Shown here in pieces: positions 746 through 12,848 of a stretch of DNA of 64,000 nucleotides. Under the pieces are notes generated by a model. That model saw only the letters and a list, made by a program, of their open reading frames with translations, was not told where the DNA came from and made no database searches. Origin of the DNA: Armatimonadota bacterium (GTDB lineage Bacteria; Armatimonadota; Fimbriimonadia; Fimbriimonadales; GBS-DC); assembly GCA_037444405.1 (NCBI GenBank), contig JBBIML010000018.1, positions 1-64,000 of the forward strand, given 5' to 3'. How positions within the stretch are numbered: the first letter of the stretch is position 1; each line of letters begins with the position of its first letter. The translations under genes were made by a program, and so were the position numbers.

Positions 746-1711
746 TTATCCCTTCGCCTGCTCAATAATTGCCTGGGCAAGCAGGGCGGTTTCGGGGTTC
801 AGCACGCCTTCGGGTTCGCGTCCGCTCTGGATACAGCGCAGGAAGTATTCGGGGGCGTTGCGCTCGCCTTCGGGCAGCGGGTCAGGCGTCTCATACACAG
901 GCTCCAGACCGCGCCGATGAATGCGCACTTTGCCCTCGGTCACGCCCGCCGTCGCCTCCGTGCCGTACACGATGGGGTTCGGCGCACCATCGCTGCCAAT
1001 CTGCGACCATGTGGCTTCGATAACGGCAATCGTGCTGGGATAGCGCAGGATCAGGGCGGCGTTGTCGTCGGCGACGGGGTAGGGCTTGGTGAGGTTGCCC
1101 CGCGTCGCCAGCACCTGATCGGGGCTGCCGAACAGGTCGGCACACATCACGGCGCCGTAGCAGGCGAAATCGGCTAACGCGCCCGCGCCGTTGAGATACT
1201 CGTCATAGAGCCAGCTGACGAAATAGGGATCACAGCCGATTTCGCGCGGTCCCGCGTGCCCTGCGCGGAACCGAAACCCAAAAATCTGCCCGAACTCGCC
1301 CGCCTTCGCGCGTGTCAGCAGGCTCTGAATCGCGGGGTTCCAGCGCGTGGGGTAGTTAATCATCAGCAGGCGCTGGGTGTGCCGGGCGGTCGCCAGCATG
1401 CGCTGGGCATCAGCTAAATCGGCAGCCATCGGCTTTTCGACCATCACATGCGCGCCGCGCTCCATCGCCTCGATAGCAATCCGGGCACTGGTGCGGTTAT
1501 CGGCGCAGACCAGCACGATATCGGGTTGCTCCTGCGCCAGCATTGCCTGCCAGTCGGTGTAGGTGCGTTCGAAGCGCGGGGCGGCGCGCTCCAGCAGGGG
1601 CGTCGCGTCGGCGACCGCCGTTAGGCTCACCTCAGGCTGGGATGCCCACTGCTCTATCAGCCCCCACACATGCCCGTGCGTCAATCCCGCCACACACAGT
1701 TTCAGGCTCAT
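746..1711 (-). CDS. Gfo/Idh/MocA family NAD(P)-dependent oxidoreductase
   Basis: N-terminal Rossmann-like segment, HVMVEKPMA motif and GAGALADFACY. Start moved to MSLKL because the longer ORF runs through the MITE. Confidence 0.85.
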   Translation of the reverse strand: MSLKLCVAGLTHGHVWGLIEQWASQPEVSLTAVADATPLLERAAPRFERTYTDWQAMLAQEQPDIVLVCADNRTSARIAIEAMERGAHVMVEKPMAADLADAQRMLATARHTQRLLMINYPTRWNPAIQSLLTRAKAGEFGQIFGFRFRAGHAGPREIGCDPYFVSWLYDEYLNGAGALADFACYGAVMCADLFGSPDQVLATRGNLTKPYPVADDNAALILRYPSTIAVIEATWSQIGSDGAPNPIVYGTEATAGVTEGKVRIHRRGLEPVYETPDPLPEGERNAPEYFLRCIQSGREPEGVLNPETALLAQAIIEQAKG

Positions 1712-1779
1712 GATGGCTTGCTGATTCGCCAGGAAACCCGCTTTGCCTGCAGGTTCAGGCGCGTTCTCCCTCCACCCCT

Positions 1780-1856
1780 GAGGGTGTTCGAAAATAGGGC
1801 GCGGTCCCCGCGCCCTGCTCAACCGGCTCGCAAGAGATGATTTCCTGAACACCCTC
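1780..1856. mobile_element. MITE-like element, copy 1 (77 bp)
   Basis: Terminal inverted repeats GAGGGTGTTC/GAACACCCTC and an internal GC hairpin. Flanking near-direct repeat CTCCACCCCT/CCCCACCCCT. Close homolog at 40171-40246. Confidence 0.7.
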
Positions 1857-1865
1857 CCCCACCCC

Positions 1866-1895
1866 TTGACAAAGCCGTAATCGATAGGGTATAGT
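1866..1895 (+). promoter_or_regulatory. Sigma70-type promoter for the nar cluster
   Basis: TTGACA-N18-TATAGT; AGGAGG SD lies before ATG 1970. Confidence 0.6.
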
Positions 1896-1969
1896 AAGCC
1901 CCATAAGCGAGCTGACTTAACTGTGTAGGTTCACTGGGGCAATATGCTCGCTTGCATAGGAGGGATAGA

Positions 1970-2527
1970 ATGACGATCAAAGGTTGCAGGGCGGAGCTAT
2001 GGGAGGACGCTTCCCGGTTGCCGCACTGCTCACGACGAGCGGTGATCCGGGCGCTTGCCTGCCTCCTTCTGCTGTCTCTGATAGGGCTTATCCCCGCTGT
2101 TTCTCTGGCGAAGTCCACCGACGGTCAGTCAACTTTCCAGCAGCTCTGTGTCCCATGTCATAACTTCGGTGGTGGCCCCCAGAAGACCGGACCCGACCTG
2201 AAGGGCGTCACTATGCGGCGAGAGCGGGAATGGCTGCGCCGCTGGATTAAAGAGCCTGATAAGATGCTGGCGGCGGGCGACCCGATAGCGACCCAGCTCC
2301 TCAAGGAGTATAAGAATGTGCCCATGCCAAGCTTCAAGCTGACCGATGAGCAGGTGGAGGCGATTATCGCCTACCTGGAGAGCATGGATGCTGCTCCCAC
2401 CACTTCGCCATCAGGCACCATTCCACCGCTCTACTATCCGACCCTTATTACCGCTATCGCCACGATCGGGGTGCTGACCGCCCTGGGACTGCTGTCAGCC
2501 AGAAAACAAGTGGAGGTGCGATCATGA
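1970..2527 (+). CDS. Membrane-anchored monoheme cytochrome c (NarC-like position)
   Basis: Signal-like hydrophobic stretch, CVPCH heme motif, GPDL, axial Met in VPMP and a C-terminal TM helix. ATGA overlap with narG. Confidence 0.85.
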   Translation: MTIKGCRAELWEDASRLPHCSRRAVIRALACLLLLSLIGLIPAVSLAKSTDGQSTFQQLCVPCHNFGGGPQKTGPDLKGVTMRREREWLRRWIKEPDKMLAAGDPIATQLLKEYKNVPMPSFKLTDEQVEAIIAYLESMDAAPTTSPSGTIPPLYYPTLITAIATIGVLTALGLLSARKQVEVRS

Positions 2528-7876: not shown

Positions 7877-8461
7877 ATGATGCACTCTGAAACCCTGAAG
7901 CAGGTGTACGCGCTGATCGCGGAGCTGTGGTGCAGCCCTGCCGAGCAGGAACAGGAATCGGTGAGCGAGCAGGCGCCCGCAGTGCTGACCGCCCTCACAG
8001 CGGTGGATACGGAGGGGGCGGAAGCGCTGGCTCAATTCCTCGCAAACCCTGTCCCAGAGGAGGAATATGTGGCGCTGTTCGAGCTGGACCCTCTCTGCCC
8101 CCTCTATCTGGGCAGCCATGTCTTTGAGGAACCGAAAACCTGCGCCCAGGCAGCCGTCTCCGACCGCAACAGCTACATGCTCGAGCTCATCGGTATCTAT
8201 CGCCACTTCGGCATGGTACCGAATGGGAAGGAGTTGCCGGACTATCTGCCGCTGATGGTAGAGTTCCTCGCCTTGACCGCAGGCTCCAGCGACCCCCTGC
8301 GTGCCCGGTTCATTCAGGAGTACCTGCTCCCATTTCTGGAACCGATTCGGGAGCGGCTTGCGGAACTGAACTCGCCTTACCTCCACCTTCTGAAGGTGCT
8401 GGAGCGCGTGCTTGCCTACGATCTGCAAACGAATGCGACGGAGGTGACAGCTCATGTTTGA
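7877..8461 (+). CDS. narJ: NarJ/TorD-family molybdoenzyme maturation chaperone
   Basis: EEYVALFE and ELPDYLPLMVEFL; located between narH and narI. Confidence 0.85.
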   Translation: MMHSETLKQVYALIAELWCSPAEQEQESVSEQAPAVLTALTAVDTEGAEALAQFLANPVPEEEYVALFELDPLCPLYLGSHVFEEPKTCAQAAVSDRNSYMLELIGIYRHFGMVPNGKELPDYLPLMVEFLALTAGSSDPLRARFIQEYLLPFLEPIRERLAELNSPYLHLLKVLERVLAYDLQTNATEVTAHV

Positions 8462-9152
8462 CTATTTCTTCTTTGTCGGGCTACCCTATATCTCGCTCCT
8501 GCTCTTTGTGTTTGGCTCGCTCTATCGGACCTTTACGGGCTTCAAGAGCTTCTATCGGGGACGATTTGACTGGAGCGCCCGTGGCGACCTGCTCTGGACG
8601 ACCCGCTCCACCGGCTTCTTCGGGCGAGCCTCCATTGGACCCGCTGTACTGTGCCTGCACTGGGGACTGATTATCGTGATCCTTGCCCATATTGTGGGGT
8701 TCATCGGCGGAGCGGTTATGAATCCCTCACTGGTGGACTTTTTCCGCTGGGCAGGTCTGTTTGGTTGTCTGCTGGTGTTGTACGGCGCTCTCTGGGCGTT
8801 CATCCGTCGGCTGAGCGTGCGCCAGCTGCGGGCGATGAGTACCCTGGAGGACTACCTCGTGCTGTTGTTCCTGATCGTGAGCGTGGGTTTAGGACTTTAC
8901 CATTCGGCGATAACACTCGCCTTCGGCGTCTCCTACGCTGTGGGTCCCTGGCTGGTGGGTCTTCTCACCCTGCGTCCGGACCCGAACCTGCTAACGACCG
9001 CGCCGCTGGCTATCAAGCTGCACCTGATTGTGAACTTCGTCTTCCTCGCCTACTTCCCCTTCACCAAGCTGGTGCATGCCTTCAGCTATCCGTTCGGCTA
9101 CCTCACGCGCCCCTATATTACCGTGCGAAGGTATGTCGCGCTGAAGAGGTAG
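8454..9152 (+). CDS. narI: Nitrate reductase gamma subunit (di-heme cytochrome b)
   Basis: Five TM segments with heme His pairs LHWG..HIVG and LHL..FPFTKLVH. Confidence 0.9.
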   Translation: MFDYFFFVGLPYISLLLFVFGSLYRTFTGFKSFYRGRFDWSARGDLLWTTRSTGFFGRASIGPAVLCLHWGLIIVILAHIVGFIGGAVMNPSLVDFFRWAGLFGCLLVLYGALWAFIRRLSVRQLRAMSTLEDYLVLLFLIVSVGLGLYHSAITLAFGVSYAVGPWLVGLLTLRPDPNLLTTAPLAIKLHLIVNFVFLAYFPFTKLVHAFSYPFGYLTRPYITVRRYVALKR

Positions 9153-9183
9153 CGGCAACTCAAGGTGTAGAAAGGTGATAGCC

Positions 9184-10776
9184 ATGCGGGATGGACGAGG
9201 TAGCCCAAAGGAGGGTCTTGTCGGTGCAACAGTGGGGTTCTTCGTTGGCTTTGCAGCGGTTGCCCTCTTCGGTCCGACCGCCCTGCGCTTTAAGGAGCTG
9301 ATGGGGCTGAGCCCTCAGGAGGTGGGATTGCTGGTGGCGATCCCGGCGCTTTCAGGCTCGCTTTTGCGAATCCCCTTTGGGGCGTGGGTGGACACCACGG
9401 GCGGGCGCAAGCCGTTCCTGATCCTGCTGGGGCTTGCCCTGGTGGGGATGACAGGGCTGACCCTGCTGGTCCACCTGTATTACCCGGAGCGGCTTCATCG
9501 GGGATTCTACCTGCCTCTGCTTGTGCTTGGCGTGCTCTGCGGCTGTGGCATCGCCACCTTCTCCGTCGGGATAGGACAGGTGTCTTACTGGTTTCCACGT
9601 TCCTATCAGGGGCGGGCGCTGGCGTTCTACGCAGGGCTCGGCAATTTGGCGCCGGGATTGTTCTCCCTGCTGCTCCCCATCACGTTGGGGAGCTGGGGGC
9701 TTAAGGGCGCCTACCTCGCATGGCTATTGATACTCGCGGTGGGCACCGTGCTGTACGCTTTCATGGGGCATAATGCCTGGTACTTTCAGTTTCGCCAGCA
9801 GGGGCTTTCGGAGCTGGAGGCGCGTCAGCAAGCAGCGGCACGCGGTCAGGAAAATTTCCCCACCGGGAACCTGGTGGAAAGCCTGCGGGTTTCAGCGCTT
9901 ACCTGGCGAACATGGGCGCTGGTCGTTATCTACTTCACCACCTTTGGCGGCTTCGTTGCCCTGACCGCGTGGTTGCCAGTCTACTGGAGCTCCTTTTTCG
10001 GGCTGGGAGCGATCACTGCTGGCGCTTTAACCGCCCTCTACTCGCTGCTAACCTCGTTTATTCGAGTCGTTGGAGGCGGGCTGTCCGATGAGCTGGAGCG
10101 CGGCGGTGAAAACACAGCTATTCTGGCACTGATGACGATGGTTAACGGCGCATTGTTGATGACGCTCACCAGCAAGTTCGAGGTTGCCGTGCCGGGCATC
10201 ATCCTGATGGCGATTGGCATGGGCATATGCAACGCTGCAGTCTTCCGATTAGTGCCTCAGGTAGTGCCCCAGGCGGTCGGCGGCGCTGCCGGCTGGGTTG
10301 GTGGGCTGGGCGCCTTCGGTGGCTTTATAATCCCTCCCATCATGGGGTTCGCAGTCCAGCGGCACGGAATGGAAGGCTATCCGCTTGGATTTGTGACCTT
10401 CCTTGCCCTCTCACTGCTTTCCCTCTTTCTTGTATGGATTCTCAAATACTTGCGGTCCGAGACCGAGCCATCGCCATCCATCACGAAAAGCGAGCTAACT
10501 GCTCGCCCGATAAGTGATCGAACGGCTTCGACCTATCGCATTATCATCGACGCTAACCGATGCTGGGAACTGGCAACACGCGAAGGCGGTTTCCAGTGCG
10601 ACCGATGTGTACGCGTCTGTCCCCATGTATTTGAAAAACCCTCCCCTCACGCCCCTGCGCGCGTGCGACCGGGTGTTGAGGTCGACGCCCATCTATCAGC
10701 CGTGCGAAAAGCGATTCGGAGCTGTCCGGCAAACGCCATCCTTCTGGTGGAAGTCGTGGAAGAGAGCCGAGTTTGA
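9184..10776 (+). CDS. narK: NarK/NNP-family nitrate/nitrite MFS transporter with a C-terminal ferredoxin-like domain
   Basis: Both NNP arginines present (LLRIPFG, FIRVVGG), plus YFTTFGGF and GGLGAFGGF. Tail reads IDANRC-x11-CDRCVRVCP...CPANAI. Confidence 0.85.
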   Translation: MRDGRGSPKEGLVGATVGFFVGFAAVALFGPTALRFKELMGLSPQEVGLLVAIPALSGSLLRIPFGAWVDTTGGRKPFLILLGLALVGMTGLTLLVHLYYPERLHRGFYLPLLVLGVLCGCGIATFSVGIGQVSYWFPRSYQGRALAFYAGLGNLAPGLFSLLLPITLGSWGLKGAYLAWLLILAVGTVLYAFMGHNAWYFQFRQQGLSELEARQQAAARGQENFPTGNLVESLRVSALTWRTWALVVIYFTTFGGFVALTAWLPVYWSSFFGLGAITAGALTALYSLLTSFIRVVGGGLSDELERGGENTAILALMTMVNGALLMTLTSKFEVAVPGIILMAIGMGICNAAVFRLVPQVVPQAVGGAAGWVGGLGAFGGFIIPPIMGFAVQRHGMEGYPLGFVTFLALSLLSLFLVWILKYLRSETEPSPSITKSELTARPISDRTASTYRIIIDANRCWELATREGGFQCDRCVRVCPHVFEKPSPHAPARVRPGVEVDAHLSAVRKAIRSCPANAILLVEVVEESRV

Positions 10777-10804: not shown

Positions 10805-10830
10805 CCCCCTCCCCATGAAAGGGAAGGGGG
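10805..10830. repeat. REP-like C-rich/G-rich hairpin between convergent genes
   Basis: CCCCCTCCCC-ATGAAA-GGGAAGGGGG. Confidence 0.45.
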
Positions 10831-10840
10831 TTGACCACTT

Positions 10841-11758
10841 TCATGGCTGGCACGCGCTGCAGGGACCGCGCGAGCATTGACCCCGCGTGGCGCTGGGGTC
10901 ATAGTCGGGGCGGAACAGCCACGGGTTGCAGCCGTCCCACCAGATACTGCCTGGTTGACCCTGCGCGTTATACTGCGTGTAGGGGTCGGTGCGCCAGTCG
11001 GTGTCGTTGGGGGCGAGCTGGGCGCCCAGCCGACGCCAGCGCGCGCTGCCATCCGCCGCGATGAAGGTCGCGCCCTGCGCGTGAATCCACATCGTGCCGT
11101 CCAGCCCGAACATCACGCCGCGCGGGTAGGCGTCCGACACCACGCCGCTCAAACAGCTGAAGTAGCGGCAGGGGCGAGCGGCATCGGTACACTCCAGCGA
11201 CGGGTTGGTGAGCGCGAAGCCCTCCACCGCCACCTTGCCGCGCCCCTCCCATATCACCGGCAGAGTCGATGGGCTGGCGACCACCGCCTGACTCAGCCCG
11301 TGCAGGAGTCCATTATAGGTGTAGCTCACGCGGGCGGGCGGCGACACCGAGTAGTTCACGCCGCTCAATCGCACCGATGCCCCCGACGGGCAGGCGTACA
11401 GCCCCAGATTCTTGATATAGGGCTGGATCGCGTTTGACCAGTGAACTGGATAGGCAGCCATCAGCGGATGATTGGGCGGCAGGTCGGGACGCCAGTTCGC
11501 GGGCGTCGCGTGGTAACGATTCCAGAGCCATGCGCCTGTGCCCCCTTCACGCCCAAAACCGAGCGGGAAGGTCTCTTCATGGTCGGTCAGATAGCCCATT
11601 AGCGCCGGCCCAAGCTGACGCGAATGGTTCAGGCAGGCGGTCTGGCGCGCCTTCTCCCGCGCCTGGGCAAACACAGGCATCAATATCGCTGCCAGCACAG
11701 CGATAATCGCTATCACGACCAGTAGCTCAATCAAAGTGAACCCTCGTGCATTTCGCAT
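10841..11758 (-). CDS. Prepilin-type N-methylation / DUF1559 protein
   Basis: [30 protein letters not shown] and C-terminal [12 protein letters not shown] (H-X9-DG); SD AGGAGG. Confidence 0.9.
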
Positions 11759-11765
11759 GATTTCT

Positions 11766-11877
11766 CCTCCTGATGCGGTTGGGATTACCGACGATCTGTC
11801 GGCGAGCAAAACAGCGTAAGCGCGCAGCACACCGTTGCGTGCTGTGCAGCGGATCAAGAGCGGGACGCATCAGGAGG
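11766..11877 (-). promoter_or_regulatory. SD-sequestering long-range stem pairing the leader's RAPP codons with the DUF1559 SD
   Basis: + strand CCTCCTGATGCG (11766-11777) and CGCATCAGGAGG (11866-11877) are a perfect 12-bp inverted repeat. Confidence 0.75.
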
Positions 11878-12246
11878 CGCACGCGGGGATTCAGGAGTCA
11901 GTGTGCGCAGGTGGGCGGCAAGGACTGGCTCGATCCAGCTGGGTGACGCTTTCCCGGCGGGTGTTGGCGCCGTGCCCTCGCCTGTGAGCGTCGCCATCAG
12001 CGGCACGAAGGGCATCGGCTTCTTGGGTGGGTCGCCCGGTTGCGGCGCCTGCGGATGGCAGATTCCGCAGTTCGGGCAGGCGTCCGAATCGGGCGCGGTG
12101 AGCCAGTCTGCGACAGGCACGCTCCGACAGCATGACGGCTCCTGCCGCTCGCAGGCGTACCAGCAGCCCAGCGCCATGCTTACTGGCGCCACTATCAGCC
12201 ACAGCGCCAGCACCGATATGAGCCATCGCTGAATCGGGCGTGCCAC
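11854..12246 (-). CDS. Cys-rich exported leader peptide with CxxC and C-terminal RAPP motif (DUF2946/CruR/CutF-like)
   Basis: Signal-like N-terminus, CWYAC, CC, CPNCGIC, Pro-rich linker and the end ..[11 protein letters not shown]. Confidence 0.7.
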
Positions 12247-12281
12247 CGCTGTTATTATACCCCAGCAGGTAGACTCTTGCC

Positions 12282-12848
12282 ATGCGCATCTACACGCGGA
12301 CGGGTGACACGGGCGAGACGGGGTTGATTGGCGGGGCGCGCGTGCCCAAAGATGATCTGCGCGTGGAGGCTTACGGCAGTGTGGACGAGCTGAACGCCAC
12401 GCTGGGGCTGACGCGCTGCTTTATTGAGCATGAAGACCTGAACGCCCTGCTGGAGCGCATTCAGCGGCAACTGTTCGATATGGGCGCGGAGCTGGCGTCG
12501 CCGCCTGAACGCGCCCACCAGTTTGCCACGCTCAGTGAAACCGATGTGCAGGCGCTGGAGCAGGCGATTGACCAGCTGGAGGCGGAGCTGGAGCCGTTAC
12601 GCCAGTTCATTTTGCCAGGGGGTACGCCCGCCGCCGCCGCGCTCCATCTGGCGCGCACCGTCTGCCGCCGCGCCGAGCGGCGCGTGGTCACGCTCAACCG
12701 CCACAGCACAGTCCGACCAGTGGTGATTCAGTATCTCAATCGTCTCAGCGACCTGCTGTTTGTGCTGGCACGAGTCGCCAATCACCGCGCCAGCGTGCCC
12801 GATGTCCCATGGAAACGGGCAGCAGAACAACTGTCTCCAGTGGAGTAA
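12282..12848 (+). CDS. pduO: ATP:cob(I)alamin adenosyltransferase, PduO type
   Basis: IYTRTGDTGET, YGSVDELN, FILPGG, ARTVCRRAER and YLNRLSDLLF. Confidence 0.93.
   Translation: MRIYTRTGDTGETGLIGGARVPKDDLRVEAYGSVDELNATLGLTRCFIEHEDLNALLERIQRQLFDMGAELASPPERAHQFATLSETDVQALEQAIDQLEAELEPLRQFILPGGTPAAAALHLARTVCRRAERRVVTLNRHSTVRPVVIQYLNRLSDLLFVLARVANHRASVPDVPWKRAAEQLSPVE

Follow-up and report, generated by a model that had tools for sequence, protein, structure and literature searches.

In Planctomycetota, Verrucomicrobiota and Armatimonadota, few families of unknown function are as expanded as the DUF1559 proteins. In the window, the stretch of 64,000 nucleotides (nt) of the Armatimonadota contig JBBIML010000018.1 that was analysed here, a gene for one such pseudopilin-like protein (305 amino acids, 10841..11758, minus strand, stop included) stands behind a small open reading frame (ORF) on the same strand, whose 130-amino-acid product, the leader, has the arrest motif RAPP close to its C-terminus. 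What does this leader do to the gene that follows it, by which mechanism, and in response to what? Our analysis indicates that the two quite probably form a nascent-chain arrest-peptide translational switch, in which a ribosome stalled at RAPP would free the DUF1559 gene's Shine-Dalgarno (SD) sequence.

The leader ORF runs from a GTG at 12246 to a TGA at 11856-11854 (12246-11854, minus strand, stop included), where the preliminary description of this locus had placed it together with its RAPP, CxxC and CC motifs. Its N-terminus, two Arg followed by about 19 hydrophobic residues, is conserved, and the hydrophobic segment (residues 8-26, 12169..12225, minus strand) is likely to be an export signal or signal anchor, a judgement made by eye. 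A cysteine cluster follows, C28xxxC32, C39C40 and C57xxC60xxC63 (12058..12165, minus strand), as defined in an alignment of 11 leaders. The peptide ends in RAPPDASRS, with RAPP (codons CGT GCG CCT CCT, 11872..11883, minus strand) five residues before the stop and the Pro-Pro pair at residues 124-125 of 130.

In that alignment, M1, W16, L17, C32, C39, C40, P52, C57, C60, C63, L87 and all four residues of RAPP are invariant, the last in 11 of 11 leaders from several genera, and C28 is kept in at least 90% of them. Most of the 58 residues before RAPP vary, as do the 1-10 after it, which differ by clade (DASRS, AASFC, VLS, LSELA, PSEPA, V...). The synonymous codons for the Arg and Ala of RAPP also vary between relatives (CGT/CGC; GCG/GCC/GCA), and selection therefore acts on the peptide and not on the RNA alone. 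Between C63 and RAPP the sequence is almost unconserved and the length constant: the last Cys lies 56-60 residues from the R of RAPP in all 24 leaders with a CxxCxxC motif (26 rows, with one alternative-frame artefact and L030, which has only CxxC and a spacing of 64, set aside). We also observed that a lipobox-like sequence, (M/V)-(A/V)-(L/V/A)-G-C, closes the hydrophobic segment in most DUF1559-linked leaders (in the window at residues 24-28, 12163-12177, minus strand) and is absent from the paralogous leaders linked to HMA-domain genes described below; the first leader Cys might be lipid-modified rather than a metal ligand.

The codons at the end of the leader have a second partner in the mRNA. 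As the preliminary description had claimed, and as holds on the minus strand, CCTCCTGATGCG, the P-P-D-A codons at 11877-11866, matches the reverse complement of CGCATCAGGAGG (11777-11766) exactly. The anti-SD arm CCUCCUGAUGCG (11866..11877, minus strand) would thus pair with the SD arm CGCAUCAGGAGG (11766..11777, minus strand), which has its GGAGG core at 11770-11766 and ends 7 nt before the ATG of the DUF1559 gene at 11758; 95 nt separate the leader stop from this ATG. When 11745-11900 is folded, the minimum free energy (MFE) structure includes the 12-bp stem, and inside the multiloop closed by it stand two hairpins, hairpin 1 at 11820..11850 and hairpin 2 at 11787..11803 (both minus strand), which are the two small loop hairpins noted earlier. 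The fold has an energy of -58.6 kcal/mol (z = -3.62), and 0 of 200 shuffles were as stable.

In RAPP stalls, RAP occupies the P site and Pro the A site (PMC10951233). This geometry would therefore put 11877-11875 at the P site, with the 12-nt anti-SD at positions +1 to +12 counted from the P-site codon. These positions lie within the mRNA channel of a stalled ribosome, given the length of that channel. The SD is about 107 nt from the stall site, so a second, initiating ribosome would meet no steric clash.

How is the leader transcribed? A promoter-like site with 10 of 12 matches (-35 ATGGCA, 18-nt spacer, -10 TATAAT; 12254..12283, minus strand) lies directly upstream, and its -10 box ends 7 nt before the GTG. 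Among the relatives a TATAAT-like box, often TGGTATAAT, precedes by 6-8 nt a start codon (ATG, GTG or TTG) that itself lies 121-129 codons before RAPP; this holds for 19 of 23 leaders (26 loci less two lacking upstream sequence and the filtered L037). The leaders therefore appear to be translated from leaderless mRNAs, and the leader mRNA of the window is probably leaderless too.

These features suggest the following course of events. A transcript, probably leaderless, would begin at the leader GTG, and its first product would be an exported or membrane-anchored, Cys-rich peptide of 130 amino acids. By analogy with other RAPP peptides, for which this step is known, the ribosome would pause at RAPP; there it would cover the anti-SD and block the long-range stem, leaving the SD free for a second ribosome to initiate on the DUF1559 gene. 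If the pause is short, the leader would be completed five codons later, the stem would re-form and the DUF1559 gene would be off. During the pause CxxCxxC would lie 56-60 residues behind the peptidyl-transferase centre, about the length of the exit tunnel plus the translocon, and how long the pause lasts would depend on the fate of the cysteines beyond the membrane, be it metal binding or, instead, disulfide formation or pulling. Copper or another thiophilic metal would prolong the stall and turn the gene on, as has been proposed for the leader CutF.

Could the whole arrangement be an accident, a spurious ORF next to a fortuitous inverted repeat? By our estimate 64 kb should contain some 0.4 inverted repeats of 12 nt spanning about 100 nt or less, and it is the related loci that decide the matter. 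In 15 of 15 first-round loci the partner of the SD in the MFE structure is a segment between -3 and +22, counted from the first Pro codon, and the SD is so paired, over at least 4 bases and with a mean ensemble probability of 0.91, in 21 of 21 loci taken as one genome per species; the two sets overlap in species, and all the loci are kin. The register of the anti-SD differs by clade, covering mostly the Pro-Pro codons and the next 2-8 nt and lying 3-20 nt later in L003, L004, L007 and L009. Despite these shifts it is always within reach of a ribosome stalled at RAPP.

The two arms have also changed together. With one locus from each of nine clades, the best SD-overlapping helices of the cognate arms (one mismatch allowed) sum to 103 bp, against a mean of 75.4 and a maximum of 92 bp when arms are swapped between clades, and none of 133,496 derangements reaches 103; without mismatches the cognate sum is 79 against a swapped mean of 61.0 and maximum of 74. 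In 14 aligned loci 79.9% of the column cells are paired, against 36-50% with the partner slid by 1-3 columns, the former value being lowered by three rows that sit one column off register in a structure assigned by hand. The covariation score for the same loci is 0.213 vs 0.116, with 0 of 500 shuffles that high. Both sides have changed in 6 of the 15 pairs of the long stem (one example pair: GC 4, UA 3, UG 3, GU 1) and in 4 of the 8 pairs of helix 2, so that hairpin 2 has an equivalent in relatives with compensatory changes. The long-range stem was missed by RNAalifold on 20 loci aligned with MAFFT, an alignment in which the SD arms were out of register and so hid it, and duplex energies of 36 x 33-nt arms, which are noisy in GC-rich sequence, were better for cognates on average without ranking them at the top.

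Codon choice at the motif is unusual as well. CCT serves as the second Pro codon in 21 of 21 loci, 13 of which have CCTCCT for the pair, against a genome background (648 long ORFs) in which CCT makes up 11.8% of Pro codons and CCTCCT 1.5% of Pro-Pro pairs. Since several genera have kept ORF, RAPP, Cys motifs and pairing alike, and with covariation, the 12-nt inverted repeat is not a chance one, and coincidence is scarcely credible as an explanation. The survey of relatives that the preliminary description had proposed, for RAPP leaders with a covarying anti-SD ahead of DUF1559 genes, thus found leader and stem conserved. Its central proposal, that a ribosome stalled at RAPP covers the anti-SD and frees the SD, gains support at the level of sequence from the invariant RAPP, the pairing in 21 of 21 loci, the covariation, the retention of CCT and a paralogue on a metal operon.

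The leader family itself is small. Homologues were clear in a six-frame search of 41 related genomes, and in 11 loci the homologous frame reads RAPP, then 1-10 residues, then a stop. Only 7 proteins were found among 5.8 billion clusters, all 7 with RAPP, and 15 matches among 1.84 billion representatives, with RAPP in 12 of the 14 inspected. A profile of the leader matched 6 of 401 genomes sampled across the phylum, including all three other genomes of the window's own family, and the relatives are placed in Armatimonadota / Fimbriimonadales. Among the database relatives, P0013 and P0019 diverge midway, lack RAPP and resemble frameshifts, and P0018 has no stop after RAPP and continues for 32 residues (MWVY... 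to the end of a 170-amino-acid protein); these three may be assembly errors or decayed switches.

Stalling could also act on transcription. In attenuation of the kind described for the leader CruR, the stalled ribosome would mainly shield a Rho-utilisation (rut) site in the C-rich 3' half of the leader, Rho would otherwise terminate transcription before the DUF1559 gene, and the stem would be secondary. CruR itself works in this way (PMC9426467); in the leader mRNA C exceeds G from about 12100 to 11840, with a peak of +23% at the RAPP codons, and this genome encodes Rho, above the family cut-off. Pro/Ala-rich coding, however, also yields C-richness, and rut sites are unstructured, unlike the strongly folded sequence between the two genes. 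Neither the covariation of the SD arm with the last codons of the leader nor the retention of rare CCT codons would be explained. We consider it unlikely that Rho attenuation is the main mechanism, and it could coexist with SD masking.

Which gene would be switched? The preliminary description had called it a DUF1559 pilin-like gene, and both expected domains are above threshold: N_methyl (PF07963, E 1.2e-9, 37.8 bits, cut-off 21.2) and SBP_bac_10/DUF1559 (PF07596, E 3.9e-7, 30.8 bits, cut-off 23.3), with the NCBIfam prepilin N-terminal domain (TIGR02532) at 32.7 bits (cut-off 16.3). A 338-amino-acid ORF from a TTG was rejected as its start, being only an upstream extension of the same frame, and an AlphaFold2 model of the protein (8 sequences) was unusable, with a mean predicted local distance difference test score of 35.5. 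The product has 9 conserved Cys. It ends in a 16-residue tail, Cys-x4-Cys-x2-Cys (10844..10891, minus strand), whose C295, C300 and C303 are invariant in 8 orthologues; orthologues are 65-85% identical, and the closest paralogue, at 56% identity, stops exactly where the tail starts. Many DUF1559 paralogues are Cys-rich too, so specificity lies in the tail and not in the number of Cys.

Leader and tail go together. The genome has 34 genes with a prepilin motif, and only the window gene has a RAPP leader. Among 63 DUF1559 relatives, counted as informative when at least 300 nt of upstream sequence were available and as tailed when ending in Cys-x3-5-Cys-x2-Cys, a RAPP-type leader precedes 17 of 17 tailed genes, its end 95-140 nt upstream, and 3 of 3 truncated genes, compared with 2 of 35 untailed ones; the remaining 8 loci have too little upstream sequence. 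Of the two untailed exceptions, L055 ends in a variant tail (...HKACKHCL) and stands behind a RAPPVLG leader, whereas L071 has a RAPG match 256 nt away that is probably spurious. On these counts the leader marks one orthologous, tail-bearing DUF1559 subfamily.

That leader and tailed DUF1559 gene always occur together would also be expected if the leader were chiefly a stable metal-binding protein, secreted or lipid-anchored, that acts as partner to the DUF1559 product, with RAPP and the stem only coupling or tuning translation and no sensing involved. Such a role would suit the conserved Cys motifs, and likewise the lipobox-like (L/V)xGC that most leaders have behind their hydrophobic segment. 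The C-terminal half of the leader, however, is nearly unconserved save for its length and RAPP, which is typical of a spacer and not of a folded domain; ordinary proteins strongly avoid RAPP (PMC12992588); and the same design heads unrelated operons. We therefore hold a mere partner protein to be very unlikely.

For the arrest-peptide switch, the question of its signal is best approached through a second locus. A profile search found another RAPP leader in the same genome (G000, contig C12, L032, 1477-1881, plus strand), ending ...WAPRAPPV-stop. Here too CCTCCTGTGTGA (Pro-Pro-Val-stop) is the exact complement of TCACACAGGAGG, the SD region directly before the next gene. The genes downstream (L033, 1993-7182) encode, in order, a secreted protein that has an HMA domain (3.7e-17 in Pfam), CEGC and a tail rich in His (in NCBIfam CopZ and MerP match best, all matches being below their cut-offs), a P-type ATPase with a His-rich N terminus and a CusB/HlyD-type protein with a heavy-metal-binding domain, and the same arrangement of leader and genes occurs in G002 and G004. 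The two leaders are 29% identical over 69 residues (E 1e-4) and have in common the hydrophobic segment, the CC pair and CPxCxxC. The C12 locus looks like a sister switch on a metal-efflux operon. A more distant relative, ending ...ARAPPCA-stop, precedes an 84-amino-acid secreted Cys-rich protein (G414:C3, L030, ~1158-2150, plus strand); this protein is mostly Cys, Lys and Gly and has a metallothionein-like look.

The same mechanism could instead serve a signal other than metal, with the leader reporting export or periplasmic disulfide-forming (redox) capacity, and pulling or oxidative folding releasing the stall. SecM and MifM set a precedent, RAPP/RGPP upstream ORFs (uORFs) occur before DsbA-family and thioredoxin-domain genes (PMC12992588), the leaders have seven conserved Cys, and the DUF1559 product, with its own conserved Cys, must be exported. 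Yet the paralogous leader, with the same Cys layout, controls the HMA / P-type ATPase / CusB-like operon, the more distant relative precedes the metallothionein-like protein, and no Sec, Dsb or pilus-assembly gene lies downstream. A non-metal signal thus strikes us as fairly unlikely. The preliminary description had suggested that metal binding or export force releases the stall; the link to metal is strengthened by the paralogue, and release by metal is not, because a leader that controls an efflux operon would be expected to respond to metal with expression. By analogy with CutF, the signal probably prolongs the stall rather than releasing it.

Several points weigh against the switch as we have drawn it. 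Arrest strength depends on context. Arrest, signal and direction of the signal at the window locus are what we infer from sequence, and the metal and its direction are taken solely from the operon of the paralogue and from CutF. The leader is not detectably homologous to DUF2946 proteins, so that function is transferred by design and not by descent. With the stop five codons past RAPP, any translating ribosome would open the stem briefly, and a difference in dwell time is required. The excess of C over G in the 3' half of the leader and the Rho gene leave room for a CruR-type mechanism, and the pairing counts come from kin loci and so overstate independence.

How does the locus relate to known systems? 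CutF, the leader of the Rhodobacter capsulatus cutFOG operon, is exported and has CxxxC and, at its C-terminus, a Pro motif (PMC9973294; 10.1101/2025.02.05.636593). Like the window leader it is small, has further Cys besides CxxxC, ends in a Pro stall motif and is linked to copper or metal handling, and in both cases the following gene has an SD that is shielded by mRNA structure and becomes accessible on stalling, or would do so here. CutF, however, stalls at PPP in an EF-P-dependent manner, whereas the window leader has RAPP; the cutF anti-SD lies in a local intergenic stem-loop, whereas here the stall codons themselves, inside the leader ORF, would pair across about 100 nt and enclose two hairpins; and the target of CutF is a multicopper oxidase, not a pseudopilin-like DUF1559 protein. 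No sequence homology between the two leaders was detected. The genome of the window does encode EF-P. 'CutF-like' proteins have been defined as shorter than 150 amino acids, with PP in the last 15 residues, a Sec signal peptide and a same-strand neighbour at a gap below 1000 nt (PMC9973294), and the window leader falls within this definition with its 130 amino acids, PP at 124-125, gap of 95 nt and a likely signal peptide, judged by inspection. The legend of Fig. 7 in that paper includes a 'PILIN' signal class.

The leader likewise has features of RAPP arrest peptides, namely a C-terminal RAPP in a small protein, a predicted SD-masking structure over the stall site and a gene downstream that shares its strand. 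It is like SecM-secA, MifM-yidC2 and ApdA/ApdP in that arrest would take place close to the C terminus of an exported monitoring peptide and the stalled ribosome would break an SD-hiding structure; those peptides regulate protein-localisation machinery and sense its pulling force, whereas the genes here are a DUF1559 pseudopilin gene and, in the paralogue's case, those of a metal-efflux operon. CruR (Bp2923 of Bordetella pertussis, a DUF2946 protein) has CxxC and RAPP 45 residues apart, to within 1-2, and copper relieves its stall so that Rho terminates (PMC9426467). Conserved CxxC-RAPP spacing and a stalled state that is ON for the downstream genes are common to both. CruR differs in acting through Rho-dependent termination, with copper relieving the stall, and in its spacing of 45 against 56-60 residues here.

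Is the leader then a DUF2946 protein, a match that the preliminary description had proposed to search for? It has the cysteines and the arrest motif of that type, C57xxC60xxC63 and RAPP, both invariant, but not the spacing of about 45 residues, which is 56-60 in 24 of 24 leaders. Every comparison with the DUF2946 model stayed below threshold: the window leader matched no Pfam family at E<=1, DUF2946 (PF11162) included; PF11162 gave two weak sub-threshold matches among 11 leaders (best E 0.0095) and none among 12 database representatives; a six-frame search of the genome with PF11162 matched neither of its two leaders; and hhalign gave a probability of 1.4% between the 11-leader alignment and 7 DUF2946 members of the same phylum. 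Two weak PF11162 matches elsewhere in the genome (L097, L098) are alternative frames of other genes and were dismissed as spurious. True DUF2946 leaders with RAPP or RGPP do occur in other Armatimonadota families (L099-L110), where they precede other genes, for example those of large secreted or outer-membrane proteins, and none of those examined precedes a prepilin gene. The leader is, on these comparisons, a separate sequence family with its own spacing rule, CutF/CruR-like in its predicted working.

The preliminary description had known of no such switch on a DUF1559 gene, a statement that now has to be narrowed. Genes of many classes are preceded by small proteins with a C-terminal RAPP or RGPP (Fujiwara et al., EMBO J 2025, PMC12992588), and the source data for Fig. 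4B of that paper contain a row for 'DUF1559 domain-containing protein' with 112 RAPP against 68 AAPP uORFs (6.5-fold, adjusted p 1e-31). The source data also list individual RAPP/DUF1559 pairs, in which many leaders are His/Cys-rich and some are annotated DUF2946. That survey and our locus thus have in common a small protein with RAPP at its C terminus followed by a DUF1559 gene, but there DUF1559 is a table row only, without SD masking, RNA structure or a leaderless start: the main text does not mention DUF1559, and six terms for these three features have 0 occurrences in it. Among the matches listed for literature on DUF1559 together with DUF2946, copper or an arrest peptide, the word DUF1559 was absent.

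The surroundings of the two genes were also inspected. At 12278-12289 the -35 element of the leader promoter overlaps the first codons of a divergent gene for a PduO-type cobalamin adenosyltransferase (12282-12848, plus strand), and leader and PduO-type gene share a very tight divergent control region. On the other side, 7877-10776 (plus strand) encodes nitrate-reductase delta (NarJ-like) and gamma (NarI) subunits and then a 533-amino-acid protein in which an MFS transporter is fused to a C-terminal 4Fe-4S ferredoxin domain, whose gene is convergent with the DUF1559 gene. Between these convergent genes lies a G+C-rich hairpin, CCCCCTTCCC ... GGGGAGGGGG (10805-10830), which lacks a U-run and was not called as a terminator; a scan of the window found no intrinsic terminator on the minus strand.

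What is new here is the sequence family and the target, within a known type of switch; the RAPP-DUF1559 association had already been tabulated, undiscussed, in PMC12992588. The locus offers testable handles on one branch of DUF1559, in the form of an arrest-peptide switch, a sister metal-efflux switch in the same cell and a tri-cysteine tail limited to the regulated paralogue. With the stalling Pro-Pro codons themselves as the predicted anti-SD, it would also be a very clean example of its kind, dissectable by synonymous recoding, and it suggests that CutF/CruR-like sensors exist beyond the reach of the DUF2946 model. More tentatively, and as a possibility that we would not put high, the tailed DUF1559 protein may be a metal-induced, metal-binding pseudopilin, whose tail binds Cu(I) or another thiophilic metal at the envelope and which is switched by a dedicated and hitherto unrecognised family of leaderless, non-DUF2946 RAPP sensors with stall codons that double as the anti-SD. 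If this is true, a branch of the very large DUF1559 family would have an assigned function for the first time, and this would suggest that the His/Cys-rich RAPP leaders listed before DUF1559 genes in other phyla do likewise.

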